Shown one piece after another: positions 12,438 through 36,758 of a DNA stretch of 64,000 nucleotides. The DNA comes from Schmidtea polychroa. Its lineage: Eukaryota. Positions within the stretch are counted from its first letter, which is position 1. The number at the start of each line of letters is the position of its first letter. Below the pieces are notes generated by a model, which saw nothing but the letters and a program-made list of their open reading frames with translations, had not been told where the DNA came from and made no database searches. The stretch is from NCBI GenBank assembly GCA_044892525.1, contig CM097885.1, positions 18,912,001-18,976,000 of the forward strand, read 5' to 3'. The position numbers and the translations under genes are program-made.

Positions 12438-13242
12438 ATGTCTGCTAGAATTCACAAATATAACAAGGAAGCTCCAACTGAATTGGAATTGCAAATTGCA
12501 AGCGTATGTAAATTAGTTAATTAAAAAAATTATTTTAGTATTTATTTAGTTCATTAATGAATTGCAAAGTACAAATGACATGAAAGATGTTTTGAGCGAA
12601 TTAATGATTACTGGAGCTAAAGTAAGAAATAATACTTTTTATGCATAAAATCATTTTTGATTCATCAATTTTGAATATTTATGCTATAGTAATACTAAAC
12701 ATTCGCAACTTCTAACCTTTATTTTGAAGTTGATAAAGTTTAGATACATTCTTTAAATATTTTAATATTAAATTATTATAACCATTATTATCAATATTTA
12801 TTATTAGGAATGTGAAGTTAGTGGTAAAAAAGCAATCATTGTCTATGTTCCAATTAACCAGCAAAAACTTTATCAAAAGATTCACACCAGATTCATTCGA
12901 GAATTGGAAAAGAAATTCAGTGGAAAGCATGTATTCATCTGTGCTTATAGAACTATTCTTCCCAAACCATCAAAGAATAGCAAGAACAAGTTGAAACAAA
13001 AAAGACCAATTTCAAGAACTCTAACATCAGTTCACGATAACATTTTGTCTGATTTGGTTTTCCCTGCTGAAATCATTGGAAAACGTATCAGATATTCAGT
13101 CGATGGTAAAAGATTGATTAAATGCCATTTGGAAAAGGCTCAACAGTTCAACATTGAACACAAGATTGATACTGTTGCCAGTTTGTATAAACAACTTACT
13201 GGTAAAGATGTTGCTTTTGATTTCCCAGAATGGAACTTGTAA
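12438..13242 (+). CDS. RPS7: 40S ribosomal protein S7 (eS7), 3 exons
   Basis: Exons ~12438-12503, ~12550-12621, 12808-13242; motifs [59 protein letters not shown]. Confidence 0.95.
12641..12751 (+). ncRNA. Intronic box H/ACA snoRNA (predicted)
   Basis: Hairpin 1 (GCATAAA/TTTATGC, ATTCA/TGAAT), H box ATAGTA 12686-12691, hairpin 2 (CTAAAC/GTTTAG, CAACTTC/GAAGTTG with internal pocket), ACA 12746-12748; lies in an enlarged intron of a ribosomal protein gene. Confidence 0.75.
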
Positions 13243-16663: not shown

Positions 16664-17359
16664 ATTTAGTATCTTGAGTATCATACAAAAATGCTGATTT
16701 GAAACTCTTCTTAATAGTAAATTTTACTTCCATGAATTAGACATTTACATTGGAATTAAATCATTCAAAAGTATTCTAATTCCACCAAATTTAGTTTTTT
16801 CGTACTGATTCCATAGAAACCATTAAGAAGTTAATATCCTAAGATAAGATTATACTTCTTTAAACCAAAATGCATCAACTGTTTGAAGCAATCCAATAAG
16901 ACCCCTTGTTTATATTTAGATCTTTATGATGTATTTACTTATTCTAATTCTATAATTAATAAAGTATATCACAATATTTTAATAATTAGAATTAAACTTA
17001 TTAAAATAAAACTTTGCTAGAGCAGCTGACTGTGAAAGCGAGCATCGAGGATAAAAACTCTTGTTCTGAATATGATATTTCTTTCTAACTACAAAGTCCA
17101 TTTACAATCACGCTCTCATGTCGATCAGCTGTTGTGCTTCTCTTTAATCTTCTTCAAATCATGGACCGTTCCATGATCTTCCGCCTGCAACTGCTCGTAC
17201 TACTCGATCCTTTGGTTCAGTTTCTTAACATAATCAGGACGGAACCAAGTCAATTACATTCGCTTACATCTTCACACCAGCTCTTCCGCTCTAGGAGATT
17301 GTTTGATCGCTGTGGCCGTGAACCGATCTACGTCTATCTGTAATTAATAATTAAATGAT

Positions 17360-18811
17360 AGTAGGTAGTTATGTGCACTCTAGATCCAGATACCCCCCCT
17401 GTTTTTTTTAAAAATTTTTTTTAAAAGACCCCCCATAATTTTTTTTTAAAGACCCCCCTTTTTTTTAATTTTATTTTTTTGTTTTAATCATCGATTACGT
17501 AATAATTTTATTTTTTGTTTTAATCATCGATTACATAAAATTTTTGTTTTAATTATTGATTACGTAATATTTTAATTTGTTTTAATTACCGATTATGTAA
17601 CAATTTAAAAAATTTTTAAAACGTTGATTACGTCATTGATTTTAATTTTTTATAAGAATTTCTTATGTCATTATACTTGAAATTTAATTCTCTGTTAAAT
17701 GAGACTATGATGTAATCAAAATTCTGAAATTTCATTTTTAGTACACCATTTTTTAAATTTACACATCTTTTTAAACAAATTGAGATATGTTCACTCAAAC
17801 AATATATAGATAGAATTTTAATCTCTATAAAATGACATCATTATTTACTTCAAATTCATAATCATAACACCTTAAATAATGTATTTTTCAGCCAACTTTT
17901 ACATACACACATATTTTCAACTTTTAAAAAATACAAATTATTCATCTATACTTAACTCATAGTAAATAATTATATTAAAAGACATATTAAAAGATGTATT
18001 AAAAACTAAACATTTATTAAAATCCCAGAGAAATTCGAGCACTATCTAATTTCCAAATCGGTGATATGACATCTTTCTCATCCATTTTATATCCCTGTAT
18101 TGAAATATTTACAAACCAGCTTTCCCCATCTTTATATTCAATTTCTTCAAAGGCATCATGAAAACGAGAATTTTGATTGTTGATGATTATATTTCCATTG
18201 CAACTTAGATTCTTATTGATTTTCCCCAACACTTTATTTACTGCAACAACATCTTCTTTTGTTATATGAGCAATGAAACTTGAATATTGCGACTTGATCA
18301 ATTTGACTGCATTTGAGAATTTATATGGAATTTCGTCTACCAAGAAATATATCTTATGGTTATGATACATTTGTACTGGTTTCACATCATTCTTGGCATG
18401 CTTCGTCTCAGTTTTTTTCTTAATTGGGCTTGTTTCTTTCAATAAATTAGAAAATGTTTTCTCACCAAAAACGTTCTTCTTGGATTGCATTTTTTAAAAA
18501 TAATGACTATGATGTCATTTTATCTCTCTTTTATACTTGTGTATAACCAATCAAATTAATGCATTTGTATTGCAAACAACATGCATGTGTCATTGACCTT
18601 CGTGTGTGACCTTTGTATGTGACCTTTACCTTTGTGACCTTTGTATGTGAGTCATACATGGTTTGCATATGTATTGCAGATGTATTGCAAATTAGTTAAT
18701 TAAAACGTGTACTAATTAGTGTGATATTAAAAATATTATACTAATACATGTAACATAAAAATACTATAACAACATAAAAATAGTGTACTATCACCAGTAA
18801 CAATATAAAAT
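17360..18811. repeat. Left terminal inverted repeat of the Maverick (~1.45 kb)
   Basis: Near-identical reverse complement of ~35240-36660. Confidence 0.95.
18017..18490 (-). CDS. 157-aa protein encoded within left TIR (unknown; possibly OB-fold SSB-like)
   Basis: Intact ORF duplicated at 35561-36034 with 3 aa differences. Confidence 0.75.
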   Translation of the reverse strand: MQSKKNVFGEKTFSNLLKETSPIKKKTETKHAKNDVKPVQMYHNHKIYFLVDEIPYKFSNAVKLIKSQYSSFIAHITKEDVVAVNKVLGKINKNLSCNGNIIINNQNSRFHDAFEEIEYKDGESWFVNISIQGYKMDEKDVISPIWKLDSARISLGF

Positions 18812-18844
18812 TAAAAACACAGTATTATAATAACTAAACATTTA

Positions 18845-19030
18845 TTAGTGATCTACAATTAATGAAAAGTGAGCTTTTCTCAACTCTTTTCTTAATATCC
18901 ATATATTATACTTCTTCTCTCTATCAATACATCCTTCGCATTTGTATGGGCATACTGATGGCTTGCTGCTGTCAACAGGGTCAAGATCGTCTTCTAACGT
19001 CCTCAAGTGATCAAACAAGACCACATTCAA
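18845..19030 (-). CDS. Small Maverick ORF with CxxxCxxC motif
   Basis: CPYKCEGC; packed head-to-tail with neighbours and followed by AATAAA on the minus strand. Confidence 0.35.
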   Translation of the reverse strand: MNVVLFDHLRTLEDDLDPVDSSKPSVCPYKCEGCIDREKKYNIWILRKELRKAHFSLIVDH

Positions 19031-19323
19031 ATCTATTCAGGTAGACATCCATATTCTGAATGGAATAATCTCTTGTGCCCAATAGATTAGATCCTTTAAA
19101 ATATTCGGATATAATTCCCCCATTTTCCCAATCAGAATCTGTATCATTTTTTCTAAAACATTTAAAATTATAAATATAAAAAGCAATAATCAAAATATAC
19201 CATTTACAGTTAAATTTGACATTCTCAACTAGTACTAAATAAATGATTAAACTGTTATTGTATATATACTTATTTCGATACACACCATCAACCATTTGGA
19301 TTCATGCATGGACGATTGTAACT

Positions 19324-20289
19324 TTAGTTTAGGAAAAATTTTAAAAATTCCATGTCATCAATTACTGATTTAATATCTTTAATAATTTTATAAACAAGTA
19401 AATGGTAATCCAATGTCTTTATACCGAGTATAACTACTTTACCACTATTGAATATGTTAACACACATTGGATTGTATTTTATATATCTTAATGCCGGAAA
19501 TATTTCTGGTTCGTAAATACATTTAATATACTTTGATAAATCATTTAAAATAACATTTGATTCAATATCAGCAGTAACTGTAATCGATTGAATTTGTAAA
19601 TCCTTGATTTCATATTTTAAATCTTCAACTTTGATCGATTTTTTACATCCCATTATTCGACATTTACCTGACTTGAAAAATATTATTGTATGTTTACCGC
19701 TTCTGTCAACAATTTGTTGATATATTTCATGTCAGAAAATGCTCGTTCACAAATATATGTACTATCAAACATAGAAATTAATTTTAAGCCCAAATCGCGC
19801 AATTTTGGATATTTGTCGTTTGGAAACATTTTGAATAAATTTACCCCTGTCTCCAGCCTTGATTTAAAAAATTCGTTAGCTTGCAATTCACATAATTCCA
19901 TTATATATTTAATATCGGTTTCTTCAACGTCGATGGTAGTCGGATTATTAAATAATTTTAGTTCTGGTTTAATTGCAAGTTCATTACAACACTCGAAGTG
20001 CACCAAATTGTTGTTAATCAAACGTAACTTATTGCGGAATCCGATGATATGGCTTACCAGATGACTTATGTTTTGGTCTTTGCCTTGCAAGTTTTTGTTC
20101 AAAACATTCAAATATTCGGTAATATCTGCTAAAAATGCTAATGAAATTAAAAATTATTCGACATTTACCTGACTTGAAAAATATTATTGTATGTTTACCG
20201 CTTCTGTCAACAATTTGTTGTGGTTTACCTTTTGGAAATTCCATATGAGATACATCAAATCTACCTTTATAATTTATATTACTAATCAT
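19324..20289 (-). pseudogene. TATA-binding-protein-like gene (154 aa when restored), interrupted by an insertion
   Basis: N-half TIIFFKSGKCRIMGCK and C-half YEPEIFPALRY...VNIFNSGKVVILG match the two TBP repeats (YEPELFPGLIY...LIFVSGKVVLTG). Removing 501 bp restores one ORF. Confidence 0.8.
19720..20152 (-). mobile_element. Fragment of hAT (Charlie/GTF2IRD2-like) transposase inserted in the TBP-like gene
   Basis: LNKNLQGK..., KYPKLRDLGLKLISMFDSTYICERAFSDMK (hAT dimerisation motif); flanked by a 68-bp direct duplication 19652-19719 / 20153-20220. Confidence 0.85.
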
Positions 20290-20374
20290 ATTTTTTCAAA
20301 TAATTTTTCATCAAGTAAACTGATGAATTAAAACAAATATAAACAATATTAATATATATAACTAATTTTTTAAA

Positions 20375-20998
20375 ATGGAATTAAGAAATGATGCTGTTTA
20401 TCAAATTGTAGGTCCAAGCGGTAGCGGTAAAACTTTATTTGTTTGTAAATTATTACAATCAAAAATGTTCAAGTCAAAATTCAATAAAATTTATTGGCAT
20501 AGGGGTGCTGATGACGAACATGGTTTGACGCAAGAACAATTCTGTAAATTAAAAATGACAATAATAAAAGGATTTGATAAAAACTGGTCATCTAGATTAC
20601 AACAGGGTGATGTAATTATTATTGATGATTTATATCAAGAAGCTAACAAAGAAAAAGATTTTAATAATTTATTTACAAAAATATCTCGACATCAAGGTGT
20701 AACAGTTATTTTTATAACACAAAATCTGTTTCATCAGGGCGGGAGTCATCGAACTCGGAACTTGAATGTTCAATATCTTGTTATTTTCAAAAATCCGAGG
20801 GATGCAACTGTTATTGATTTCATTGCAGGACAAGCATATCCAAACAATCGTAACTTTCTAATTGAATCATTTCAAGATGCAACCAAAATACCCCATGGAT
20901 ATTTATTCTTTGATTTTACTCAGCAATGCATGGATGATGTACGTATTAGGACAGATATTTTTAATAAAGATGGTGTAACAGTTTATAAACAAAATTAA
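20375..20998 (+). CDS. Maverick DNA-packaging ATPase (A32/FtsK-like)
   Basis: Walker A GPSGSGKT, Walker B IIIDD, SRHQGVTVIFITQNLF, FKNPRD, PHGYLFFD. Confidence 0.93.
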   Translation: MELRNDAVYQIVGPSGSGKTLFVCKLLQSKMFKSKFNKIYWHRGADDEHGLTQEQFCKLKMTIIKGFDKNWSSRLQQGDVIIIDDLYQEANKEKDFNNLFTKISRHQGVTVIFITQNLFHQGGSHRTRNLNVQYLVIFKNPRDATVIDFIAGQAYPNNRNFLIESFQDATKIPHGYLFFDFTQQCMDDVRIRTDIFNKDGVTVYKQN

Positions 20999-21022
20999 AT
21001 TATGAATCTATTATAATAAAAA

Positions 21023-21199
21023 ATGGGGTTCAAGAAAGTTTTAATTAAACATGATAATCAATTAGTCAAAGTGAATAATGTCAAGAAACGTGTAAAGAAA
21101 CATGTAAAGAATTCTATAAAAAAGATAGTAAAGAATTCTGTAAAGAAAACGTTGAAGAAAAGATCAATCAAAACACCTAAAAAATGGATTAAATTATAA
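21023..21199 (+). CDS. 58-aa lysine-rich peptide (possible DNA-condensing core protein)
   Basis: MGFKKVLIK...VKKRVKKHVKNSIKKIVKNSVKKTLKKRSIKTPKKWIKL; fills the gap between two viral genes; below the ORF-track cut-off. Confidence 0.55.
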   Translation: MGFKKVLIKHDNQLVKVNNVKKRVKKHVKNSIKKIVKNSVKKTLKKRSIKTPKKWIKL

Positions 21200-21232
21200 A
21201 CAAAGTTAAACGATAAAAAATAAATTTCAATA

Positions 21233-21565
21233 ATGAAATTACAACGTAGTATACCATATTTTAATGCATTGATAAAAGCACCACTCATGAAAAGAACAAG
21301 TATTTTACAGTCATTCCCACAATTTGTTGTGGACGATTTGCTTGAAATTATTGTTAATGTTGTGCGTGGCAATGTTGACATTAGTAAAGCGAAAAAACCT
21401 GTATTGCAAAACCATAAAAAATCACTTTTATCTTTAGTAAATATAAAAAATAAACGTATAATGCGAAAAATTATGTACAAACAGAAAGGGGGGTTTATAT
21501 CAACTTTGATACCAATCGCATTATCTTTATTAGGTGGATCTGGTTTATTAGGTGAGCCTTCATAA
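21233..21565 (+). CDS. Maverick small core-like protein with GG|F hydrophobic tail
   Basis: C-terminal QKGGFISTLIPIALSLLGG resembles adenoviral-protease-cleaved pX-like tails seen in Polintons. Confidence 0.7.
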   Translation: MKLQRSIPYFNALIKAPLMKRTSILQSFPQFVVDDLLEIIVNVVRGNVDISKAKKPVLQNHKKSLLSLVNIKNKRIMRKIMYKQKGGFISTLIPIALSLLGGSGLLGEPS

Positions 21566-21663
21566 ACGTTAAATTATTTTAATATCATCATCATAAACAA
21601 TGGGTCAATTACCTATGGGACATTTACCAAACCTTATTCTAAATTTTAAATCATCGTGTTGTA

Positions 21664-22683
21664 ATGGAGAAGATATGGACAAACCCAAAAGATCCAGCCG
21701 GTTTCGGTGGAGTCGAAAAGTTAAAGAAAAAAGTACCCAAATCAAAAAAGGAGACTCAAAAATGGTTGTCAAGTCAACTGGCATACAGTTTAAACAAGCC
21801 AATGTTGAAACGGTTTCCCACAAGAGCATATAAAACATATGGTATTAATGATTTATGGCAAATGGACTTAATGGAAATAATTCCATTTTCTAAAATTAAT
21901 AAGGGTTACAAATATATTTTGACATGTATTGATGTCTTTAGTAGATTTGCTCGAGCTATACCATTGAAAACCAAATCTGCTAGTGAAATGGCTGTTGCAA
22001 TAAAAACAATGTTTAAAAACGGTAAACCAGATAATTTACAAACTGATTTGGGTAAAGAATTTTATAATAGCAAAGTTAAAGAAAATCTAAAGGGAATAAA
22101 TCATTACTCTGTTTTTTCACAATTCAAAGCTGCTCATGTGGAAAGGTTTAATAGAACATTAAGAGATCGATTGAAAAAATATTTTGTACATCAAGGTAAC
22201 AAAACCTGGATAAATGTTTTACCGAAAATAATTCATAGTTACAATCATTCCGAACATGGAGGTCTAAATGGTATGAGACAGATTGATGTAACATCTAAAA
22301 ATAGTATGAAAATATTATTATCACAGCAAGATGTAACAAAAATTAAGAAACCTAAATATAAAGTTGGTGATCATGTTAGAATAAGTAAAATATCGGCTTC
22401 ACCATTCATTAAAAATTTTGACAACAACTGGAGTGACGAAGTCTTTCAAATATCGAAGATTAATACGAAACAGACTCCCGTTATGTATGTTATTAAAGAT
22501 ATTGATAATAATGAAATCCAGGGTAAATTTTACGAACAGGAACTGCAAGTTATTCCGACACCATCTGTCTTTAGAATTGAAAAAATTCTTAAATCAAAAT
22601 ATAAAGGTAAGGATAAACAATAATACGTCAAATGGCATGGATATCAAAACCCAACTTGGATATCAGCATCTCAAATTGAATGA
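21664..22683 (+). pseudogene. Maverick retroviral-type integrase with C-terminal chromodomain (premature TAA at 22621)
   Basis: WQMDL, CIDVFSRFA, LQTDLGKEF, VERFNRTL, GKFYEQEL; frame continues after the stop as YVKWHGYQNPTWI. Confidence 0.92.
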
Positions 22684-22719
22684 ATAGAAACAGTTTTTTC
22701 ACTATTTTACCAAGCAATA
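22680..22719 (+). pseudogene. First 13 codons of probable minor capsid (penton) gene, cut by LTR insertion
   Basis: MNRNSFFTILPSN matches the FxxxLPSN N-terminus typical of Polinton minor capsid proteins and follows the integrase. Confidence 0.6.
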
Positions 22720-23534
22720 TGTTCATTTTTAAAGTCAATATCGCGAACAATGATTTTATTTTTGGATAACAATTTGTCCAGGTCTATAATCGAAGATACC
22801 GCCATCATTGAACATCCTAATGGCCGCCTTGGTGCCGATTGGGAATGGAATTGAGCCATATCCGCCATAGAACGCCATATCCTGTCGCAAGGCATTTCAT
22901 ATCCATGTTTATATCTAAATCGAGCTGCTTCCATTTGTGCACGACATACTTGAGATCGACAATCAGGGATCATACCAATCATAACGCCTCCAGTACTTTC
23001 AGTAATATTAAACAATCTCGTAGCTGAACTCATCTCAATCATTTTATCGGGAACTTTTCCTTTCGCATATACAACAATAATTCCATCTAAATCAATAGTT
23101 CTGATTTTAAAGTCAACTCCAATTGTGCTTCTGCATTGTTCAGTATAAGTATCATCTTCCAATTCGGGATTCATTTGATTATTGGCAACGTCCGGTTTCG
23201 AAACAAATTGTTAATTCCAATTATAATCACAAAAAACTTCTAGAACCAAATAACGAAACTTCTCCCAGTAAAACAATTTCACCAAAAAATTTTTAATTCC
23301 ACTAAAATCCTTTTAAAGCAATTAATCCAGCAAAATCAATTTAATTTACCAACCATTAATTTCTCTCGCGTTTGCGTGCGCACACCCACAAGAATCGGTC
23401 TAACCAGACCGCGCACACAGACGTGAACACAAAAAGCCAAACAACACCCACAACTATATGCGTCTGTGTGCGCCCACAGCCAACAACACAAGGATAGTAA
23501 AAGGCGCACACAGACCCGAACATCGAATTAAACA
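22720..23534 (-). repeat. 3' LTR of element 1 (815 bp) containing Rab1/PSMA6 chimeric ORF
   Basis: 22720-23291 matches 29407-29978; I saw one substitution (23032/29719). ORF starts at 23174. Confidence 0.93.
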
Positions 23535-26500
23535 TCCTCCCCCCTTGACACTTTGGTGTCAATCTCACATCCCCATTAACTTCTCCTTCTTTTGTGATCA
23601 AGCATAATTTAGATATGCATCTTAATACCTCCTTTCCTTCACATTTTATCCTCATCACGCGTAGCTTTCCGTCTTCTCCCGGTATCACTTCGATTACTCT
23701 CCCCATTGGCCACTTCCCATACTCATTCCTTTTGTCTAAAACCCACACTGTTGACCCTGTCTTGACATCATCTTCTATCTTATTCCATTTCGCCCTTTGC
23801 CGCCAGCACGGGACCAATTCTTTCATCCATCGCCGCCAGAAGTGCTCGGTTAACTCCTGAATTCGTCTCCACCGAAACATCGTACATGACATTTTCTTCA
23901 CTTCTATATTTTCCACAGCTTCTCCTTTCCAACCGGCAATTAATAAATGATTTGGAGTTAGCACAGCGTCTTCCTTACTGTCTACTGCCTGAACCACTAA
24001 GGGCCGAGAATTTATCAACATTTCAGCCCTTGTCAAAACATTTCCCAATTCTTCGTCGGTCACATCTGCACTTGTCAGTAAGGCATTCATAGCTCGCTTT
24101 GCCGATTTGATCATGGACTCAAAAACTCCCCCAAAATGCGGTGCTGATGGAGGATTGAAGATCCAACTACATTGATGCTTCGACAACTCTCTTTGAGTTT
24201 TATAGTTGTCGATTACAAAATTCTTTACTGTAGAAGTGGCGCCTATGAAATTTGTGCCATTGTCTGAGATCATCAATTTTGGCATCCCCCGCCTCGCTGC
24301 AAACCTCATAAACGGTCGAATGAATGAGTCTGTGTCCAACCCATATGCCATTTCAATATGCACCGCCCGTGACTTTAAACATACGAATAGGCAAATGTAC
24401 CTTTTATTTCTCACCTTTCCTCTGCCTACTTTAGTTTCAAACGGTCCTGCAAAATCTACTGCCGAGTGAACAAAGGCTCTAAAAGGTTCTGAAACTCTGA
24501 ACGCCGGTAACGGTGCCATTATTTGACTCATTCCTTTAGCTTTTCTTTTTCTACACATTCCGCAATCTGTCTCACATTGTTTGATCATTACTTTGGCCTT
24601 CAAAATCCAATATTTTTCGTTCAACACACTTAAGACATGTTGAGTTCCTGCATAATGGCTCAAACTTTCATGGCAATCTTTGATGATTAGTCTGGTGACC
24701 CAACTCTTGTCCGATAGAATTATTGGATATTTTGTCTCCCATGGTAAATTCTTTGCATGAATTATGCGGCTATTACTTCGTAACACAGTCATCTCATCTA
24801 AAACTGGTGTCAACTTTAACAAACGGCTTCTGATATCTACCCTTTCATTCTTGATAAGTCGTGCCAGGTCCTCAGAGAAAAACTTCGCCTGCTCTCCTTT
24901 AATTACATTGAGTTCCATTCTTTTAAGCTCCTCAGTTGTCAGTTGCCCTGTGGTTCTTTGGGACTGTGTCGTTCTCGTGTTCAAAATAAATCGCTCCACC
25001 CAGGCCCGCACCCTGATCAATCTCTGCCATGAGGAAAAGGTTTCTACTTTGAAACAGTCCGTGTTCCCTATTCGTCTTTGCCCATCTACACACGCCATCA
25101 TTGTTATTCCCTTTCGCAACTCCTTTGTTACACTGGATTGGTTTAACTCCGTCGCTGGCCAATTTCCCATTGGTTCTAGTAGAAATTTCGGTCCCTCCCA
25201 CCACATGGTGCTGTTTATCAAATCCGATGCCGATAATCCTCTTGTGATCAAATCCGATGGATTTTCACTTGTTGGAACATAATGCCATTGCCCAGGTTTG
25301 GTCATTTCTTGAATGAACCCAATTCGATTAGCTACGAATGGCTTGAATAGTCTCGAATAATTTCGAACCCAATGTATTACGTCTTTACTATCGGACCAGA
25401 ACCATATCTCACTCATCGGTTTCCCGAGCACTTCTGAAACCCGTCTTGCTAATTTAACTCCAGTACACGCGGCCATTAATTCCAACCTTGGTATACTTAT
25501 AATTTGCACTGGAGCTACCTTTGCCCTTGACGCAATTAACACACTTTTAGGTCCCACCATAGTTTCTTCCCGTAGATATATAGCTGACCCATATGCGGTG
25601 CTTGACGCATCGGAGAAGACATGTAATTGCCATTCATTTTTCATTTGAGTCCTTAAACATCTCGCAATTCGCAGATCTCCGAAATTATTTGTGTCCTCTA
25701 CCCACTTGTGTATTTCTTTATTCAACTTTGGAGGTAGCTTTTCGTCCCAATCAAGCCCTGACAACCACAACTTCTGAATAATCTTTTTCCCTATGATTAT
25801 GAATGGGCCTAACAGTCCCAATGGATCAAAGATTCTTGCCACTATGCTCAATACCTTTCTTTTCGATAAACATTCCTCATTCGGCAGATCTACTTGAAAA
25901 CTAAATTCATCGTCTTCCGAGTACCATTTCAAACCTAGGGTCTTGACGGCCATTGTCGTTTCCTTTTCAATATTCAGTGTTTTAGCTCGTTCTTCAATTG
26001 GGATTGTCGCCATAATTCTTTCCGAGTTGGACAGCCATTTTCTAGGCCGCATTCCGGCATTGCCCCAAACTGTTTCTAGCCCCTCTTTCAGCCTCATTCC
26101 TTCTTCTTCAGAATCAACAGAGTCCATGGTGTCGTCCATATACGTAGACTTGCAAATAGATTCTGTCACTTTTGGGTAGTCCTTTTCAAATTTCTTTGCA
26201 TTCTCTTGCGCGACTAGCTGGGCAAGGAATGGAGATGCATTAAGACCAAACACTAACCGATTAAACTCATACTTAATAATTTTCCCCCCAGTTGACCATA
26301 AAAATCGATGATATTTCCTGTCTTCAAGAGCCATTCTTATTTGCAGATACATTTCTGCTATATCACAAACAACAGCTACGGAAAATCGACGAAAACGAAT
26401 TAAAATATCAAAAACTTCATTTTGTAATTTTGGGCCAACTTCCACCATATCATTAAGTCCCACCCCATTACACCTGGCTGCCGCATCAAACACAATACGC

Positions 26501-27146
26501 ACTTTCGTGGTGTCCTTATCTCTTCTAACCACGGGAAAGTGTGGTAATATCCATTCCGAATCTCCAGGCATCATTTTCTCTTTTACAATACTTATATAAT
26601 CTTTTTTCAGGTAACCATTCAAAATATCCTGATACTCAGTTCGTAAGTCTTCCTTTTCAAGCCTCTTGTCCAAACTTCGCAGTCGACTTTCTGCCATTTT
26701 TTCACTATTGGGCAAAGCTGTTGGTGACTCTTTCCATGGCACTCTTACCTCGAAATGTCCGTCTACTTTCTTCATCTCAGATTTGGTTTTCTCATAAATC
26801 GCTTGGTCTTTCACTGCAAATATATTTTCCTTTAAGCCGCTATCATCAATTTCCCAAAATCGCTCCATCTGTCGTTGCAAATCCTCGCCATTACCGAAGA
26901 ACGTTCGTATGAAATTGCTTTGATGGTTCCAAGTTCTTCCCACCGAGGTTCTTCCCACACATGTCAAGCCAAGTGGCGTTAAACGGGCAATCGGTTCATC
27001 CAACTTACCATCGATTTCTTTGAGTGCTCGTTGAAGCGTTAAATAATCCGCGCCAATTAACACTTCAACTGCCTGTCTCTCGTCTAGCATCGGAAAATGG
27101 ATGCCCTTCAGGTGAGTCCACTTATGTTTTTCTCTGGCCCAATTTA
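23356..27146 (-). CDS. BEL/Pao Pol (end of protease region, RT, RNase H, integrase)
   Basis: KVRIVFDAAA, CDIAEMYLQI, FGLNASPFLA, YMDD, FSDASSTAYG, IPRLELMAA, VDFAGP, SDNGTNF, GGVFESMIK. Separated from gag by a 1-nt frameshift near 27150. Confidence 0.95.
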
Positions 27147-29861
27147 CTACCTCATTTCTCCCGTGATATTTGTTACGGCCAGTGCGTTGAAGTTTTTCGT
27201 CAATCGGCCGTCATTACTAATTAACTTCATGGTCACTGGAGTAGCCATCATTTGTTGGACATTACCTCCGATAACCCCTATCGGTGTCCTCTTTTCCACC
27301 CCTTTTAACCCAAGCTCCTTTAAAATTCTTAGATTGATGTAGCTTACTGAGCTTGCATCATCTAACAGTGCATTGACTTTTATTTTCTTGTTCCCATTTT
27401 CCAGGTAGATTGGAATTGTTCTTAAACTAAGGTAAGGTCTTAGGTTTTTCTCGTTCATCCCTTTCTGGGTCAGCATCGTGTTGTTACCTTTTTCACTCTC
27501 CTCACTAATTTGTCTTTCATGTAATAATTCGTTGTGCCTTTGCTTACATCCGGTAACCTTGCAGAAAGATTCTTTACGACATTCCTTGGCCATGTGATTT
27601 CTTTTGAAGTAATTCCTGCACAGTTTCTTTTCTTCGATGACTTTCTTCCTTTTAGGAATTGTGAGTTGCTTGAACTTGTCACATTGGTCTAGGTAATGTT
27701 GACCACCACAGTGTACACACTCTGATCTATAGCCGTTAGAGTTATTCACCTGTATAACTGTTCCACTTTTAACTCTGCCATCTGGTTGCCCCGTAAAATG
27801 CGTCCGACCTCCAGGATTGAATCTTTCTCTTCCCCTAGACACCCCTTCTACTCTTGACCCATCATAAGCCCTGGTGCTTGGTTTAGTCCCATACACAACC
27901 TCGTTAGTGGACCTTAGGATCTCCGCTTCTTGTTGTATCCATCTTCTCAAATCCTCTATTGTCTCCCGCAATTCCTTTTCTATTTTGTCTTTTTTCCATT
28001 TATACACAAGATTCGTCGTTAACTTGCCCAAACACTTTTGAAAAAGATAGCCAGTCTTTAACTCGGATTCTTTCCCAGTGGATTTAAATCGCACGGTGAC
28101 CGTTTCTAATAATCCAACAAATGAGTCTAGATCCTTCAAATCTCCTTCTCGAATTGGCCTGAACTGTTCCATCTCCTCTAACATTGATAAATATATCCTT
28201 TCATCCCCACCATATCGCCTATCCAACTTCTCTTTTGCCATTTGATAAGCCTCTGCCGAATATCCAAGATTTTCAATTAACTTTAATGGCTCTCCGTGAA
28301 GGTACTTGTGCAGGTGAAACATCTTTTCAACCTCATCACCTTCCGCTTCGTCAACACATGCAGTAAAAGCTGCTTTCCATGGTTCGTAATCTTTCATCTT
28401 GCCTTCAAAAACAGGGATTGTAATTTTCTGTAGACTTTCCAGTTTTCTTTTATGCCCGGAATTATTCTTCTTGATGGTATCATCATTCACATTTTCCTTC
28501 TCTTCCATAAAAGATTGATTTGCTTTTCTTTCCATCAATGCCCCAATTATTTGATGTTTTTCCTCGATCTCTTGCAGGTCTTTATCTAAGATTGCAGTGA
28601 TGTCCAATCTTTGCAATTTTTTACTGATTGTTCTCAGATCCCCTAATTCTTCATCTAGACTCTCCTTTTGATCTTCATATTCCGCCAACCATTCGCTAAC
28701 ATCCTTCCCATTTATATCATTGAGAATCTTGTTTCTTAATCTCGTTAATTTTCCTTTTTTCATTCTCTTTTTCCACAGTCCTTCTTCTAAAATCTCTTCG
28801 TCATTGCCCCCGCACAGCCTGAGTGACAAATGAAGTGTCGACCCTACTTGTATCCTATAATCATTCAATCTTCTTTTATTTTCTAACTGCTTTCCTGCGT
28901 ATACTAACATTTGATAATTTTCCGGAATTCCTTCTTTGTCCTGGATTTTTCCTTTTATCTTTTCAATTGTGTCCTTCCATTTAACGTCCAGAGTAATTGT
29001 CTTACCAGTAAGAGTTTTGACAAATATTTGACTTTCCCATCGCAACTCAAAACCCATTACCCCGCTCGCCCTCACCCTTGACTCAGCTCTGTTATTTACC
29101 CTGTTCCCCTGGCTTCCCCCTTTAAAAGAGTGCTGGGGCCCATAGCAGCACTTTCCCACGCTCGGTAGGGAAGGGAGGATGTTTAATTTTACAAAAGTAT
29201 TATAATATATACATAATATGCGTGACCACAAACAAGATTCTTTATAATACATATTAATTACCAAAATATTATTAATTACAAAAATATTATTAAACACATA
29301 ATAAACATAATATTTACATAATATATATAAAACCAAAAAAGACATTTTATAATACATATTAATTACCTTGTTCCGGCTGGCTAGCCGGAACCACGCTCTG
29401 CTACCATGTTCATTTTTAAAGTCAATATCGCGAACAATGATTTTATTTTTGGATAACAATTTGTCCAGGTCTATAATCGAAGATACCGCCATCATTGAAC
29501 ATCCTAATGGCCGCCTTGGTGCCGATTGGGAATGGAATTGAGCCATATCCGCCATAGAACGCCATATCCTGTCGCAAGGCATTTCATATCCATGTTTATA
29601 TCTAAATCGAGCTGCTTCCATTTGTGCACGACATACTTGAGATCGACAATCAGGGATCATACCAATCATAACGCCTCCAGTACTTTCAGTAATATTAAAC
29701 AATCTCGTAGCTGAACTCGTCTCAATCATTTTATCGGGAACTTTTCCTTTCGCATATACAACAATAATTCCATCTAAATCAATAGTTCTGATTTTAAAGT
29801 CAACTCCAATTGTGCTTCTGCATTGTTCAGTATAAGTATCATCTTCCAATTCGGGATTCAT
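27147..29861 (-). CDS. LTR-initiated polyprotein: host-derived leader - ubiquitin - Gag - aspartic protease
   Basis: Rab1 and PSMA6 fragments, read-through of the PBS ([14 protein letters not shown]), ubiquitin 28806-29033 ending LRLCGG, Pao-type Gag (IPVFEG..YEPW), Cys/His knuckles, protease ALLDDASS. Confidence 0.88.
29389..29406 (-). promoter_or_regulatory. Primer-binding site complementary to initiator tRNA-Met 3' end
   Basis: TGGTAGCAGAGCGTGGTT directly after the LTR's CA; metazoan tRNA-iMet ends ...CTCTGCTACCA. Confidence 0.85.
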
Positions 29862-29978
29862 TTGATTATTGGCAACGTCCGGTTTCGAAACAAATTGTTA
29901 ATTCCAATTATAATCACAAAAAACTTCTAGAACCAAATAACGAAACTTCTCCCAGTAAAACAATTTCACCAAAAAATT
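29407..29978 (-). repeat. 5' LTR of element 1, lacking ~243 bp of U3
   Basis: Identity to the 3' LTR stops at 29978; no terminal TG or TSD. Confidence 0.9.
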
Positions 29979-29991
29979 CTTATTAATAAAA

Positions 29992-30411
29992 ATGTCTTGT
30001 TATTTTATTGACTTTGTTGGTTATAATGATTATGCTGGTGGAATAATTATTAAAGAATTATGTATTATGAATGTAAATAATATTTTACGCCCAAAGTATT
30101 GGTTATTTAATGATTTACCATTTTGGGCTGGACGTGAAAATTCAGATCGATTGGAATGGTATGAAGGTGAAGATTTGTTTTGTCTAACATGTATATTGAG
30201 AGATGTAGAAGATACAAGTGGAATTTTCTATGTCACTGATCAAGATAAACTTACAGTTTTGAAAAATTATTTCCCAAATTTAAGATTAATAAAATATTCA
30301 ATCCAATTATCAGAATATTTTCCTGATAATATCTTGTGTCCTTACCGTGATCATTCTAATTGTGCTTACAAAAATTGTTTAATTGCTGTGTTAGATTATT
30401 TAAAAAATTAA
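29992..30411 (+). CDS. Maverick accessory protein, RNase H/3'-5' exonuclease-like with C-terminal Cys/His cluster
   Basis: FIDFVGY...IIKELCI at the N-terminus, CPYRDHSNCAYKNC at the C-terminus. Confidence 0.55.
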   Translation: MSCYFIDFVGYNDYAGGIIIKELCIMNVNNILRPKYWLFNDLPFWAGRENSDRLEWYEGEDLFCLTCILRDVEDTSGIFYVTDQDKLTVLKNYFPNLRLIKYSIQLSEYFPDNILCPYRDHSNCAYKNCLIAVLDYLKN

Positions 30412-30731
30412 TAAAGTTTTTGATTAAAAATTATATTATTATTAATTTTGTTATTATTACTCATATGCATTAAGATTGCAGTTTAAATGCATGATTAATC
30501 ATGTTCTCTTAGTTTGTGTTAAATTTTTATTTTGTAATGTGTGTAAGTTTTGCTTCCCAATGTGTGAAAAGTATTTCACATTGTGTGTAAATTATATTTC
30601 ATAGTGCGTGTGCATGTAATACTCTCAATTTCTATTGGGTGAATAAATATTACGCAATTTATGATATATAAAGCAATGTTTAAAAATATACCATCACTTT
30701 TTTATATACCTAAAATTTTAAACTCAACAAA

Positions 30732-31100
30732 ATGTCAAGAAATAATCAAGGAAGCCAAAGCGGAAACAGTGTCAAGAATGGCAAGATTTATTTATTTGTC
30801 ATTATTATAATTTATAGGTCTTCATCGTAATTTCAACAAAAGTTCTAACAATAACAGTGAAAACATGCCAAATGGTATTTCGTTATTATTATTATTAAAT
30901 TTATAATTATTTATTCTTTTTAGATTTTATTATAAACAACATGAATGGATGCATTATAAATGGACGAAATATGAACGAGTCAAGTACAAATAACAATAAT
31001 AATGGTAACAATTTGATTGCGCGCTGTACTGCATATGGAAAAAATGATTGCAAAATATCAAAAAGAAAATTTAAATGTAAGATTTTTAATGAATTTTTAT
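30732..31100 (+). CDS. Spliced Asn-rich exons upstream of pPolB (possible 5' extension)
   Basis: TATATAAA at ~30665; exons 30732-30780, 30818-30874, 30924-...; phase-1 GC-AG and GT-AG introns of 37 and 49 nt keep the frame open. Confidence 0.45.
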
Positions 31101-31182
31101 AAGGTTTTATTAAAAGATTTATTAATGTTTTTATTTTAATAATAATTAATACTTTAAATACAATAACTATAATATAGTACTT

Positions 31183-31186
<4 letters not shown>

Positions 31187-31253
<67 letters not shown>
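31187..31253. repeat. (AAT)n microsatellite
   Basis: About 22 perfect units. Confidence 0.95.
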
Positions 31254-31254
<1 letters not shown>

Positions 31255-31334
31255 TCTTAAACCTTTGATTTCATTCAGGCTCAAAATATCAAAATTATTG
31301 TAATAGTTCATTACATGATGATTGTGATTTCATA

Positions 31335-34300
31335 ATGGAAAAATATTACAAACATAGCCATAATCATACCATCTTTTTTATTTGCCCTGTTTGTATGAAC
31401 CCCGAGACTGTAACATATATGGAGTTTTATCATCAACATAGGGATCATTTAACTCAGTATAATTTAAAGAAAAAAGACCTTATTAATTTATTAAAAAATA
31501 ATATTTCCAATACCTATAATCCCGCTATAAATCTTAATAATGTTACTACAAGTACTAATAATATGTCTAATGTAAATAATAATAAAAGAAAAATTAATTT
31601 ACCTAATCTAAAACCCTCTAAATTTCAGACACTGATGATGAGGTCGGTCATGCCTTTGATAGTTAACTCTTATTCACTTTTTAATAATAATAATGATAAT
31701 AATAATAATAATACTTCTATTACATCAACTTCTACAGAAGTCATTATTAATCAACAAGGTGGTTCACTTGAACCTGAAACCATATTCGATTTAAATAAAA
31801 CACACGCAGAAGTTAAAATGGATGTTTCATCCTTAAATTTAAAAACAGTTTCGATCCCTACTCAGTTAATAAATGAATTAAATAAAGTTTCATCCGAGAT
31901 GGGTTCAATAAAAATTCAATTTTGTTTGAAAGTGGAATTTGTAAAAGATGAAGAATTTCAATCATTCGTTATTTCAAATTCTGCTAGATCCATGAGTGAT
32001 ACCTTCTTAGAAGATGGTATTGATTTATTAAATGAAAAAATAATTAAAGTTAACGAAAAGGGAAGCAACTGGGTTATACATAAAATTGAATATATTAGTT
32101 TTATAATAACAAAATATTCGCAAATATCCAGATTAACTGGCCGTGGATATATTTCTACACCAGAAACATTATTAAATAAAAAATGTACTGTTAATATTAA
32201 AAATACAAATGATGAATGCTTCCTATATAGTATTTTATCTATTTTGAAATATAATAGTATTAGTACCAATAGATCTAAGCCATATAATTATAATACTTCG
32301 GAATTAAAATTCGATCCTGCAGATCTCCCTATGCGCCTTTGTAATATTTCTAAATTTGAATTCCAAAACCCTGGTTTATCGATAAATATTTTAACTTATA
32401 ACGAAAATATATTAAATGATGTTAAGAATACTGAAGAAGTTATGAAACATCCTTATGTTGACATAATTTATCGATCTAAAGTTATTGGGGGGACAACAAT
32501 TAATTTAATTTTGTTAGAAGATTCTGACACATATCATTACATAGGTATTACTAATCTTGATAGACTTTTGAATTGTAACGATTCTAGTGTAACTGCTGTT
32601 AGGATTTGTAGTAAATGGTGTCCGAGATGCTTAAATGGTTTTCGAAATCCTAATTCTTTCATGAGACACAAGGGTTTGTGTGATAAAAATCAGTTAGGGA
32701 CCACTCTCTTTACATTACTCGAAGATAAATATCTTAGTTTTACAAATTGGTTAAAGATTGTCACTCCTCCATTTGTTATTTATGCCGACTTTGAGGCAAT
32801 TTTACCTAAAGATAATAAATACCATCAAAAAAATTTACCAATCTCAGCTGGTTTTGTTTTTATAAATAATTTTACAGGGGATAAATTTTATAAAAGTTTT
32901 ATAGGATTGGATTGTGTTGAACAGTTTCTTCATGAACTTGAAGAAATTGGTAAGCAAATAGTGGCTCCATATTTTGAAACACGATATAGGAAAATGATGT
33001 TTTTTAATAGTATTGACAAAATAAACTTTTCTTCGGCTGTAAATTGTCATTTGTGTAAGAAAACTTTAGTAAATCCAGTAAGAGATCATGACCATTTTTC
33101 GGGTAAATATTTAGGTGCAGCTTGCTCAACTTGTAATCTTTCTCGAAGAATTAGACCGGTTTTACCAGTTATTTTTCATAACTTGAGAGGATATGATCTC
33201 CATCATATTCTCAAAATTGGCTTAGGTAAATTTAAATCATGGAATATTAATTGTATTTCTATAACTAGTGAAAAAGTTTTAAGTTTATATGCAAGAATTG
33301 ATGGATTAACTATAAAATTTATCGATTCTTGTCAATTTATTAACGATTCCTTAAAAAATGCTGTACAAACATTAACTACATTTCCATTGACTAATTCTGA
33401 ATTTAACGGAGTAATTGTTAATAGTAAAGGCATATTCCCATATGATTTTGCAACTAGTTTAGAAGTGTTTCAGGGAACTCCCCAATTACCACCAATTTGG
33501 GATGGTGTTACTGAAGTAGAATATGATATGGCTCAGCGCATTTGAGATGAACATAATTGTAATTCACTTTTGGATTACATGATGATATATTTAAAATTAG
33601 ATGTCTTTTTACTTGCGGATTATTTCCAACAGTTTAGAGCAAAATCAATAGCTCATAACAGATTGGAACCCTTAAACTTTTTAGGCATTCCCGGTATGTC
33701 ATGGAACTCTGCACTCATGACTTTAGATCATCCAATTGAGTTGATCCAAGACATGGAGATTTATAATTTCTTTGAGGGTGGGATTCGAGGGAGATTAACA
33801 TTTGTTAATAAACATTACGTAAAATCAGATGAAAACACAGAGTTGCTCTATATAGATATTAACAACCTATATGGTTGGGCACTTAGTCAGAAACTACCAG
33901 ATGGTAATTTTAAGTGGATTAACGATGAAATAAAATTAAATAAAATTTTAGACGATTGTATGAATGTTGACTTGGAATTACTCACATTCGGTTATACTGT
34001 TGAAGTCGATTTGGAAATTCCAGAATCGATTCATGTTAAGCTTGACGATTTCCCTGTTGCAGCTGAAAAGATGTGTACACCAGGATCCAAAGTGGAGAAG
34101 TTGATGCTTACCCACTATCCTAAAAAGAATTATGTAGTTCATTGGAGACTTCTCCAGCTTTATCTAAATATTGGGGTAAAGGTCACTAAGATTCATCGCG
34201 CTATACAATTTTAACAGTCATCAATATTTAAAAATTATATAGATACTAACACACAACTTAGGGCATCATCAACAAACACATTAGATAAAAATTATTTTAA

Positions 34301-35120
34301 ACTATTAAACAACAGTCTATACGGTAAGACTGTTGAAAACCTAAAGAAACGAATTAATTTAAGACTTTGCAATTCAGCCCAAAAGGTTTTAACATATTGT
34401 TCTAAACCTAATTTCAAAAGGACTACTAAAATCGATGACGACTTAATATCTGTTATATTAAGAAAAGATTTAATATGTTTAAATAGACCAAGTTATATTG
34501 GTCAATCAGTTTTGGATTTATCAAAACTTCGTATGTACCAACTTCAGTACATTGATTTAGAAAAATATCGTATAGAATTTAATTGTAAAATTAATATAGT
34601 TGCTGGGGATACAGATTCGTTCTTTTTGGAAATTAAAAATTGCAAATTAAATTCTCTTTTACCCGCAATGATAAGGGATAATTTATTAGATACCTCTAAT
34701 TACGAGCCAACACATTCATTATATTCAAAAAACCTTGACTCTGTAATAGGGAAATTTAAAGATGAAAGCAAGGGTCTTGGATATGATGAATGGATATTTT
34801 TAAGACCAAAATGTTATAGCATGAAGGGTAGTAAGGGATGTATGAAAGCGAAGGGGGTCACAATGAAAGATACTGGACTAACTCATCAGTCGTATCTGAA
34901 TTGTTATAATAATAATGAGATTTATACAGTACCACAATTTAGGATAACGAGTAAAAACCATCAACTTTTCAGTATTAAAAATAATAAGAGGGCTTTAACT
35001 AATGCTGACGATAAGCGCAATTGGGTACTTAAAAATAAAAGTTATGCGTATGGTCATTATAGGGGGGGGGTGGTATGGTTATGGCTGATGATTCTGATGA
35101 AGAAATGTTGCTGCCCATAG
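31335..35120 (+). pseudogene. Protein-primed family B DNA polymerase (pPolB) with two in-frame stops
   Basis: YADFE exonuclease, RDHDHFSGKYLGAACSTCNL EndoVII-like insert, FHNLRGYD, YIDINNLYG, KLLNNSLYGK, GDTDS, GKFKDE, PKCYS. The three ORF-track pieces share one frame, with stops at 33543 and 34212. Confidence 0.95.
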
Positions 35121-35239
35121 TTGATCCAGATGAAGATTTGCTATATCATCCTCATTTTCCGAATGATGATGGTTGTCAATTAATAAATTTTATGATATAA
35201 AAAAAATTTGTTTTCATTCTATTTTTAAGCGTTACAAAA

Positions 35240-36660
35240 TTTTTATATTGTTACTTGTGATAGTACACTATTTTTATGTTGTTATAGTATTTTTATGTTA
35301 CATGTATTAGTATAATATTTTTAATATCACACTAATTAGTACACGTTTTAATTAACTAATTTGCAATACATCTGCAATACATATGCAAACCATGTATGAC
35401 TCACATACAAAGGTCACAAAGGTAAAGGCCACATACAAAGGTCACACACGAAGGTCAATGACACATGCATGTTGTTTGCAATACAAATGCATTAATTTGA
35501 TTGGTTATACACAAGTATAAAAGAGAGATAAAATGACATCATAGTCATTATTTTTAAAAAATGCAATCCAAGAAGAACGTTTTTGGTGAGAAAACATTTT
35601 CTAATTTATTGAAAGAAACAAGCCCAATTAAGAAAATAACTGAGACGAAGCATGCCAAGAATGATGTGAAACCAGTACAAATGTATCATAACCATAAGAT
35701 ATATTTCTTGGTAGACGAAATTCCATATAAATTCTCAAATGCAGTCAAATTGATCAAGTCGCAATATTCAAGTTTCATTGCTCATATAACAAAAGAAGAT
35801 GTTGTTGCAGTAAATAAAGTGTTGGGGAAAATCAATAAGAATCTAAGTTGCAATGGAAATATAATCATCAACAATCGAAATTCTCGTTTTCATGATGGCT
35901 TTGAAGAAATTGAATATAAAGATGGGGAAAGCTGGTTTGTAAATATTTCAATACAGGGATATAAAATGGATGAGAAAGATGTCATATCACCGATTTGGAA
36001 ATTAGATAGTGCTCGAATTTCTCTGGGATTTTAATAAATGTTTAGTTTTTAATACATCTTTTAATATGTCTTTTAATATAATTATTTACTATGAGTTAAG
36101 TATAGATGAATAATTTGTATTTTTTAAAAGTTGAAAATATGTGTGTATGTAAAAGTTGGCTGAAAAATACATTGTTTAAGGTGTTATGATTATGAATTTG
36201 AAGTAAATAATGATGTCATTTTATAGAGATTAAAATTCTATCTATATATTGTTTGAGTGAACATATCTCAATTTGTTTAAAAAGATGTGTAAATTTAAAA
36301 ATGGTGTACTAAAAATGAAATTTCAGAATTTTGATTACATCATAGTCTCATTTAACAGAGAATTAAATTTCAAGTATAATGACATAAGAAATTCTTATAA
36401 AAAATTAAAATCAATGACGTAATCAACGTTTTAAAAAATTTTAAAATTGTTACATAATCGGTAATTAAAGAAAATCACAATATTACGTAATCAATAATTA
36501 AAACAAAAATTTTACGTAATCGATGATTAAAACAAAAAAATAAAATTATTACGTAATCGATGATTAAAACAAAAAATAAAATTAAAAAAAAATTATGGGG
36601 GGGGGTCTTTTAAAAAAAACAGGGGGGTATCTGGATCTAGAGTGCACATAACTACCTACT
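35240..36660. repeat. Right terminal inverted repeat of the Maverick
   Basis: Reverse complement of 17360-18811. Confidence 0.95.
35561..36034 (+). CDS. 157-aa protein in right TIR (second copy)
   Basis: Near-identical to 18017-18490. Confidence 0.75.
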   Translation: MQSKKNVFGEKTFSNLLKETSPIKKITETKHAKNDVKPVQMYHNHKIYFLVDEIPYKFSNAVKLIKSQYSSFIAHITKEDVVAVNKVLGKINKNLSCNGNIIINNRNSRFHDGFEEIEYKDGESWFVNISIQGYKMDEKDVISPIWKLDSARISLGF

Positions 36661-36758
36661 AATGATAATTCAGGGACTATTTTTATATTTGAAAATTCAA
36701 TCATTTTTTTAAATATATACATCGCAGCAACAGGCTTAAGTTATTATTTGATTGTTTA

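Follow-up and report, generated by a model that had tools for sequence, protein, structure and literature searches.

A trimmed TBP-like protein of a widespread Maverick group and its candidate late-promoter box

The sequences assembled here make it likely that a Maverick gene for a trimmed protein with the fold of TATA-binding protein (TBP), with an altered DNA face, supplies the element's own late-promoter factor, acting through a YATAAAC box before the packaging, integrase and capsid genes. On sequence grounds this Maverick gene is real, conserved and lineage-wide, its promoter correlate is both strong and specific, and it probably represents a variant of viral late-gene control. The gene lies in a Maverick (Polinton) that extends from 17360 to 36660 of the window, the 64,000-nt stretch of Schmidtea polychroa DNA that was analysed. 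The element has terminal inverted repeats (TIRs) of ~1.4 kb with AG-type termini and a 6-bp target-site duplication, AATGAT, and it holds a protein-primed DNA polymerase B (pPolB) broken by stops, an rve integrase and an A32 ATPase, all of them Maverick/Polinton traits. The TIRs and the genes discussed first are as follows.

17360..18810: left TIR, starting AGTAGG, with the target-site duplication AATGAT just before it (17354-17359)
18017..18490, - strand: 157-aa ORF inside the TIR, with a second copy at 35561-36034 on the + strand
20375..20998, + strand: A32-like packaging ATPase, 207 aa
22719..29982, - strand: LTR retrotransposon with 577-bp LTRs, 99.7% identical; DUF1759
29992..30411, + strand: 139-aa ORF (ORF139), conserved across this Maverick group
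31269..35120, + strand: DNA polymerase B, protein-primed, spread over three frames with stops between
35241..36660: right TIR, ending CCTACT, with AATGAT just after it (36661-36666)

Compared with the sister copy L114, the window element is missing ~3 kb that hold a putative minor capsid gene, a pX-like gene, a putative major capsid gene and a protease gene, and the LTR retrotransposon, presumably of BEL/Pao type, stands in that place; capsid and protease genes are absent from the window copy. The repeated ends of this retrotransposon contain a proteasome-subunit fragment, and its long ORF consists of a ubiquitin domain followed by DUF1759. The protease of L114 has a Peptidase_C5 match (E 1e-4), and the 407-aa and 338-aa ORFs, which have no Pfam match, are taken by us to be the major and the minor capsid protein on size and gene order. 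The integrase is 319 aa long in the window versus 339 aa in L114. The 157-aa TIR ORF is possibly a ssDNA-binding protein, its only pointer being an atlas lead at score 0.86, and in one sister copy a TATA plus initiator lies upstream of it; an atlas search with the 139-aa neighbour returned unnamed clusters. A coding piece of host ribosomal protein S7e (12808-13242, + strand) lies ~4 kb to the left of the Maverick.

The TBP-family gene occupies 19324-20289 on the - strand, with its start codon at 20289, and in the window it is split into two parts.

19324..19719, - strand: 3' part of the TBP-like gene, with the C-terminal repeat, the stirrup E-x-E and two Phe; one copy of a 68-nt repeat stands at its beginning
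19720..20152: internal piece of a hAT (Spin-doc type) transposase, 433 bp, high-copy
20153..20289, - strand: 5' part of the TBP-like gene; the other 68-nt copy forms its end

The window copy of the gene is dead, and all protein analyses used natural uninterrupted copies in place of the window gene. The interruption is confined to the window, being absent from 31/31 sister loci (L002-L032). Identical 68-nt copies (19652-19719 and 20153-20220) bracket the hAT piece; across 19652-20220 it shows no transposon ends, an internal loss of ~100 bp and the 68-nt duplication on both sides, an arrangement that fits repair-templated insertion rather than transposition.

A preliminary description of the locus had proposed a TBP-like gene of 154 aa without an N-terminal extension, divergent from the ATPase, and each of these statements has been borne out. 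Pfam PF00352 matches the natural 135-aa 3' frame of the window gene (E 1e-15), matches to this family score 56-58 bits against a cut-off of 22.9, the modelled fold is that of TBP with TBPs as Foldseek matches, the length and the missing extension are seen on natural uninterrupted sister copies, and the ATPase ATG at 20375 lies head-to-head with the gene across an 85-bp spacer. Intact sister copies, which the same description had proposed to look for, were found: 150 of 4003 own-genome candidates were scored, with open frames in most, and the whole 154-aa frame is present in 19/19 of the best-scoring sister loci fetched, a choice by score that is biased to intact copies. The gene falls into at least five subfamilies with 60-67% identity to the window's own, head-to-head with the ATPase wherever an ATPase is present, and 20 further own-genome loci, examined for other TBP versions paired with other boxes, yielded only known subfamilies among the matches listed. 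Its dN/dS is 0.11-0.34 in nine of ten subfamily pairs, the tenth being saturated, and these values are rough because dS is at least 1; the ATPase gives 0.05-0.11 for comparison. Judged by these ratios, the TBP-like gene is under purifying selection across five subfamilies.

Beyond the own genome, 88 homologues were recovered from 107 candidates, mostly 144-165 aa long, and a wider TBP-like family is present among the best 150 representatives. Eighty of 82 metagenome loci were retained. At least one Maverick core gene lies beside the TBP gene in 41/80, a further 19/80 have only the 157-aa or the 139-aa neighbour, and 20/80, mostly short contigs, have neither. Three of these 20 (L111-L113) look like cellular TBPs and were left out as family members. 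The statement that TBP lies outside the core Maverick genes holds for the eight vertebrate core genes given in the available text of PMC8097293 and PMC8502044. As far as these loci reach, the TBP-like gene is a lineage-wide trait of a widespread Maverick group and not peculiar to the window element.

An AlphaFold2 model of the natural copy L004, made with a 78-sequence alignment, has a pLDDT of 95.7 and a pTM of 0.84 and predicts the strands of both repeats as a two-repeat, ten-stranded saddle with a complete C-terminal repeat. Foldseek returned 44 PDB matches at E<=0.001, with TBPs as those listed (TMq 0.58-0.69), so that the structure prediction proposed earlier as a check on the fold gave a TBP saddle; viral TBP homologues in BFVD also matched, with E down to 3e-8. 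The earlier claim that both TBP repeats are present stands for the strands of the beta-saddle and has to be amended elsewhere, since Pfam detects a single repeat and, in the model of the short form, the N-terminal repeat keeps its strands and lacks both long helices, where canonical TBP has two helices per repeat. The spacing from N69 to F99 is 19 residues versus 30 normally, and the second helix region is 21 versus 34. Relatives of 165-173 aa keep the canonical spacing, and a model of the long relative L096 (pLDDT 94.7, TMq 0.74-0.83) predicts both helices. Because longer relatives retain both helices, the N-terminal shrinkage looks derived.

A phylogeny against host TBPs, another check that had been suggested, separated the element-type rows from all 7 host rows. 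The tree (52 rows, 169 columns, one archaeal row as root, without giant-virus or herpesvirus TBPs) places 34 element-type proteins in one clade (100/99), apart from 7 host paralogues and 10 other cellular rows, and a 20-row clade holding the short forms (99/95) nests within it. The idea that the element captured a host TBP paralogue recently was rejected, as the element clade excludes every host row. These clades and the nested position of the short forms suggest that the gene is old in the Maverick lineage and shrank later.

The DNA-binding face of this protein is both conserved and unusual. Face residues were counted over 78 proteins in yeast numbering, assigned by a fixed offset from canonical P0143 and by alignments, and the residue types at these positions agree with Table 1 of PMC12529657. 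N69 (76), F116 (77), F190 (78) and F207 (78) are kept, as are P191 in 65/78 and the canonical stirrup glutamates E186 (75/78) and E188 (77/78), which contact TFIIB according to the available text of PMC10005294. The replacements are F99>P, V71>N and V122>R (each 77/78) and T124>M (78/78); N159>S (77/78), V161>T (73/78), I194>R (77/78), V203>C (78/78) and L205>N (78/78) are also found. Three of the four canonical intercalating Phe are thereby retained, F99 is lost, and eight further face positions carry substitutions, mostly polar. Among 45 relatives that are longer and more distant, Pro, Arg and Met never change, Thr and Asn are found in 44/45, and the I194 and V203 positions vary. According to the available text of PMC1636458, the altered specificity of TBPm3 lies at I194, V203 and L205, and it is the N-proximal repeat of TBP that touches the box in its 3' half. 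The N-terminal repeat is also the more remodelled half here, and the half of the box that it would contact holds the C by which the box deviates. A face so conserved yet so different points to a different DNA target. DNA bending might be weaker without F99, a point against the proposal; the herpesvirus protein ORF24 needs all four Phe, as described in the available text of PMC12529657.

A candidate for that target lies before the element genes. The window contains the following boxes and spacer elements.

20338..20345, + strand: TATAAACA box, predicted late promoter, 37 nt before the ATPase ATG; conserved spacer element
20353..20361: TATATATAA, not conserved
20984..21199, + strand: TATAAACA box at 20984, followed at 39 nt by a 58-aa basic ORF (21023-21199)
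21195..21565, + strand: TATAAACA box at 21195, followed at 38 nt by a 110-aa ORF
21561..21833, + strand: CATAAACG box at 21561, followed at 39 nt by a 77-aa MG...CC ORF that overlaps the integrase start
21592..22623, + strand: CATAAACA box at 21592, followed at 72 nt by the rve integrase

Four consecutive ORFs of the window each have a box ahead of them, at 37, 39, 38 and 39 nt (box starts 20338, 20984, 21195 and 21561), and that of the integrase (21592) is at 72 nt. ORF139 has a box in sister copies and none in the window. The 110-aa ORF, which we assume to be pVII/PZ-like and name so here, gives in a sister copy a weak adenovirus pX-like C-terminal match (E 0.084). The small MG/CC ORF (21600-21833, + strand, in the window; 2171 onward in L114; also in other subfamilies) has a start conserved across subfamilies and a frame different from that of the integrase, and is possibly a lipid-modified virion peptide.

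For element genes of own-genome and metagenome loci, as much as 130 nt of sequence ahead of the start codon was collected, rows being dropped if they had no start codon near the expected place or lacked 100 nt upstream. Near-copies were removed (ATPase 61 to 25, TBP 97 to 50), which leaves sets that are not phylogenetically independent, and the box was scored in the 100 nt before the ATG against 200 shuffles. On the sense strand YATAAAC precedes 23/25 ATPase, 10/10 pVII-like, 12/16 integrase, 9/9 major capsid, 6/11 minor capsid, 6/8 pX-like, 4/6 protease and 9/12 ORF139 genes; on the antisense strand it occurs in none of these sets, the shuffled means are 0.2-1.2, and 0/200 shuffles match the observed counts. 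A de novo 6-mer count likewise puts ATAAAC first (71/83 versus 7.0 expected). The box typically starts 33-45 nt ahead of the ATG, and mostly 32-42 nt ahead for the ATPase (22/24), pVII-like and ORF139 genes. Those of the integrase, pX-like and protease genes are further away (53-129 nt), often within coding sequence, which counts against the proposal. A non-canonical box before morphogenesis and integrase genes is a trait shared with viral TBP (vTBP) systems, the term 'late' being assigned here from gene function. L140, which has a TBP gene, carries AATAAAC 38 nt before its ATPase. Elements with short-form and with long-form TBPs both have the box, and it therefore appears to track the DNA-face signature, not the helix loss.

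The TBP genes themselves are arranged otherwise. YATAAAC precedes 0/50 of them; upstream lie TATAWAW (30/50, shuffled 12.9) and TCAYT (37/50, shuffled 16.8), often 28-32 nt apart, and TATAWAW is not enriched before the box-bearing genes. The TBP gene of the window's own subfamily is not preceded by a TATA-initiator pair with canonical spacing, which counts against the proposal. The TATATATAA noted early on in the spacer is indeed present at 20353-20361 and fails as a conserved signal: as an ATPase promoter it was rejected, occurring in 1/25 ATPase upstream regions against a shuffled mean of 0.5. Read on the - strand, it may be the TATA box of the TBP gene, ~70 nt before the ATG.

Several other observations concern these upstream regions. 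TBP genes without TATA (L046, L052, L057, L073, L075, L076, L079, L082) often have TTGTTTTA(A/C)T upstream, a word that is repeated in TIR subrepeats at 17476-17614 of the window. TTGTTT occurs upstream of 19/50 TBP genes versus 4.3 expected, some instances being the ATPase box read backwards. Metagenomic Mavericks carry tRNA-Ile(GAT) between the TBP and ATPase genes and one tRNA-Cys (L090 3449-3523, L096 5515-5586; 2/16 loci scanned). The long-form locus L096 also has a KilA-N gene and a parvovirus-type phospholipase A2 gene (7142-7999 and 9086-9484), and a box stands 36 nt before the phospholipase ATG.

The box might be no promoter at all. TATAAA and CATAAA are variant poly(A) signals, and the motif could instead be the upstream gene's stop codon or a by-product of Ile-Asn-Lys coding; several boxes do overlap the preceding gene's stop codon or coding end, and the motif is found at 9/50 TBP 3' ends that are not closely followed by an ATPase. 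We regard this explanation as very unlikely: the distance to the ATPase stays the same with a divergent neighbour, an unrelated one or a tRNA gene, it is set by the downstream ATG (32-42 nt in 22/24 ATPase cases), and only 1/14 ORF139 3' ends carry the motif where TBP comes next. Contigs of four runs were compared with sister L114 as a view of expression: those of run X1 covered all 30 bins, as DNA would, and the sole poly(A) loose end in run X2 coincided with a genomic A-run.

Mavericks without a detected TBP gene offer a comparison. The box is absent before 23/23 genes of such elements (10 + 13): 0/10 genes tallied in a second, distant Maverick family of the same genome, with no TBP match between its TIRs, and 0/13 in three partial, GC-richer contigs without a TBP match, in which a TBP gene could lie beyond the contig. 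Contig L143, outside this tally and without a TBP match, has CATAAAC 39 nt before its integrase ATG, which counts against the proposal. Viral contigs scanned with ATPase and capsid queries yielded no same-clade Maverick lacking TBP, a TBP scan gave one weak non-family match, and 12/12 further own-genome ATPase loci have a TBP gene, whole or broken. Since no close TBP-less relative was found, box and TBP gene are confounded with ancestry, and the TBP-less controls are few, distant and weak. The second family (L133-L138; G000:C2:142512000-142541900, C3:9769000-9798900) is abundant, with 345-bp TIRs and a 430-aa double-jelly-roll capsid, and by inspection TAAA or AAAA stands immediately before most of its start codons, a pattern that recalls the poxvirus late TAAATG.

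A host factor could also read the box, whether Forkhead, host TBP or a paralogue, with the element TBP doing other work such as titrating TFIIB from host genes. ATAAACA fits the Forkhead pattern RYMAAYA, L143 has its single box at a fitting distance without a TBP match, and the conserved stirrup glutamates are what a TFIIB decoy would need. The host has at least seven TBP-like loci and tandem intronless TFIIB paralogues of ~301 aa, to which 13 matches are listed in clusters on two contigs (L117-L124 and L185-L187 for both kinds of gene). We nevertheless judge this reading unlikely. Box strand and distance are strict; the optimal Forkhead site GTAAACA occurs in 1/83 regions and its reverse TGTTTAY in 0/83, and position 8 of the box is G or T in 7/58. 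The TBP-less Maverick family of the same host does without the box, as do 4/4 host single-exon genes checked. A DNA face that is altered and yet near-invariant would be of no need to a decoy, and in the available text of PMC1636458 yeast TBPm3 disfavours a C towards the end of the box.

In the mechanism that we prefer, host TFIID and Pol II would transcribe the early genes, the TBP gene included, from ordinary TATA-plus-initiator promoters. The element TBP would then bind YATAAAC, a site whose C at position 7 would make it a poor one for host TBP, and through its conserved C-terminal stirrup it would bring in host TFIIB and Pol II to turn on the packaging, integrase and capsid genes. TFIIA, Mot1/BTAF1, TAF1 and Brf1 are partners at the N-terminal helix surface of TBP, and loss of those helices would free the element TBP from host partners gripping that surface. 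Binding, TFIIB recruitment, timing and escape from host regulators are the parts of this scheme that we infer; the redirection of host Pol II to late promoters, as first suggested in the preliminary description, is supported indirectly by the late-gene-specific box, the changed but conserved face and the kept TFIIB-stirrup glutamates. Normal Pol II spacing from the ATPase-type boxes would leave a 5' leader of only ~5-8 nt, and this counts against the proposal. For the fullest version, in which a large animal Maverick lineage has a one-gene early-to-late switch consisting of the smallest known TBP, which reads YATAAAC, lacks the host-regulator surfaces and plugs into TFIIB and Pol II, we would put the chances at about even.

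The element TBP might instead bind the box to repress transcription, or to serve replication or packaging, and not as an activator that recruits Pol II. Having lost F99 and both N-terminal helices, it could occupy DNA without a full initiation complex, and nothing that the element encodes was identified as a counterpart of the partners of herpesvirus ORF24. Such a role strikes us as quite improbable, given that the TFIIB-contact glutamates are kept in 75/78 and 77/78 proteins and that the box lies at a TATA-like distance from start codons, in place of an ordinary TATA.

An activating role of the element TBP would bear on how Mavericks live. Maverick virions were unobserved as of the available text of PMC8097293, and gene control in Mavericks/Polintons is essentially undescribed in the portion of the literature that was searched; a dedicated promoter factor, together with a box ahead of each particle gene, speaks for a viral cycle that runs in stages over passive transposition. 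The single protein and its 7-bp site form a testable pair, and the family offers a putative natural altered-specificity TBP and a series, running from full-length proteins to ones without the helices, that shows how much of TBP can be done without. If the proposal is true, the pair would be an orthogonal TBP/TATA system evolved independently of herpesviruses, and the box alone would predict unannotated virion genes. Searches of literature that leaves out most subscription journals brought up no account of a Maverick TBP family or of a YATAAAC box. A term search found neither TBP nor TATA in the main texts of PMC8097293, PMC11161782 and 10.64898/2026.06.19.733378; the available main texts of PMC8097293 and PMC8502044 describe neither the structure of a TBP family nor a promoter box; 'TBP' occurs in the available text of PMC8502044 only within a figure legend on MELD viruses (preprint 10.1101/697771), and one of its supplementary files gave no TBP match.

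Placed among known systems, the window element resembles the Mavericks, Polintons and adintoviruses of PMC8097293 and PMC8502044, as far as their available text describes them, in its TIRs, 6-bp target-site duplication, AGT-type ends, pPolB, rve integrase and ATPase, and its group probably in protease and capsid genes. Cellular TBPs are the best sequence and structure matches of the Maverick protein, and with the cellular family (TBP/TRF, archaeal TBP) it shares the beta-saddle, the YEPE.FP stirrup, three of four Phe, N69 and P191; it differs in its ~22-27% identity, an N-terminal repeat shorter by ~11 and ~13 residues, nine DNA-face substitutions and a clade of its own. Poxvirus TBP/TFIIB-like factors and giant-virus TBPs are likewise viral TBP folds linked to stage-specific promoter recognition, but they serve a virus-encoded multisubunit RNA polymerase, according to the available text of PMC12917281. 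The Maverick stretches analysed showed neither such a polymerase nor a gene for TFIIB, and viral TBP homologues from giant viruses and BFVD have 8-22% identity to the Maverick TBP.

The closest functional parallel is the herpesvirus vTBP, exemplified by KSHV ORF24 in the available text of PMC12529657, where a nuclear virus that lacks an RNA polymerase of its own encodes a TBP fold and a non-canonical TATA-like box precedes the late genes, TATT in herpesviruses versus YATAAAC in Mavericks. In both proteins V122, T124, V161 and L205 are replaced, with polar residues in ORF24 (Table 1 of the same paper). ORF24, however, is 752 aa long, has separate domains binding Pol II and ORF34, works in a six-protein complex and has all four Phe, whereas the Maverick TBP is a bare saddle of 145-170 aa that lacks F99 and keeps the TFIIB stirrup. 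With 154 aa and a TBP fold only, the Maverick protein is, on model evidence and in a comparison at fold level only, outside the herpesvirus vTBP family (ORF24/BcRF1/UL87). By analogy it may nonetheless work like a herpesvirus vTBP, and a minimal early-to-late switch resembling the vTBP/TATT system is the best reading of the Maverick gene and its box.
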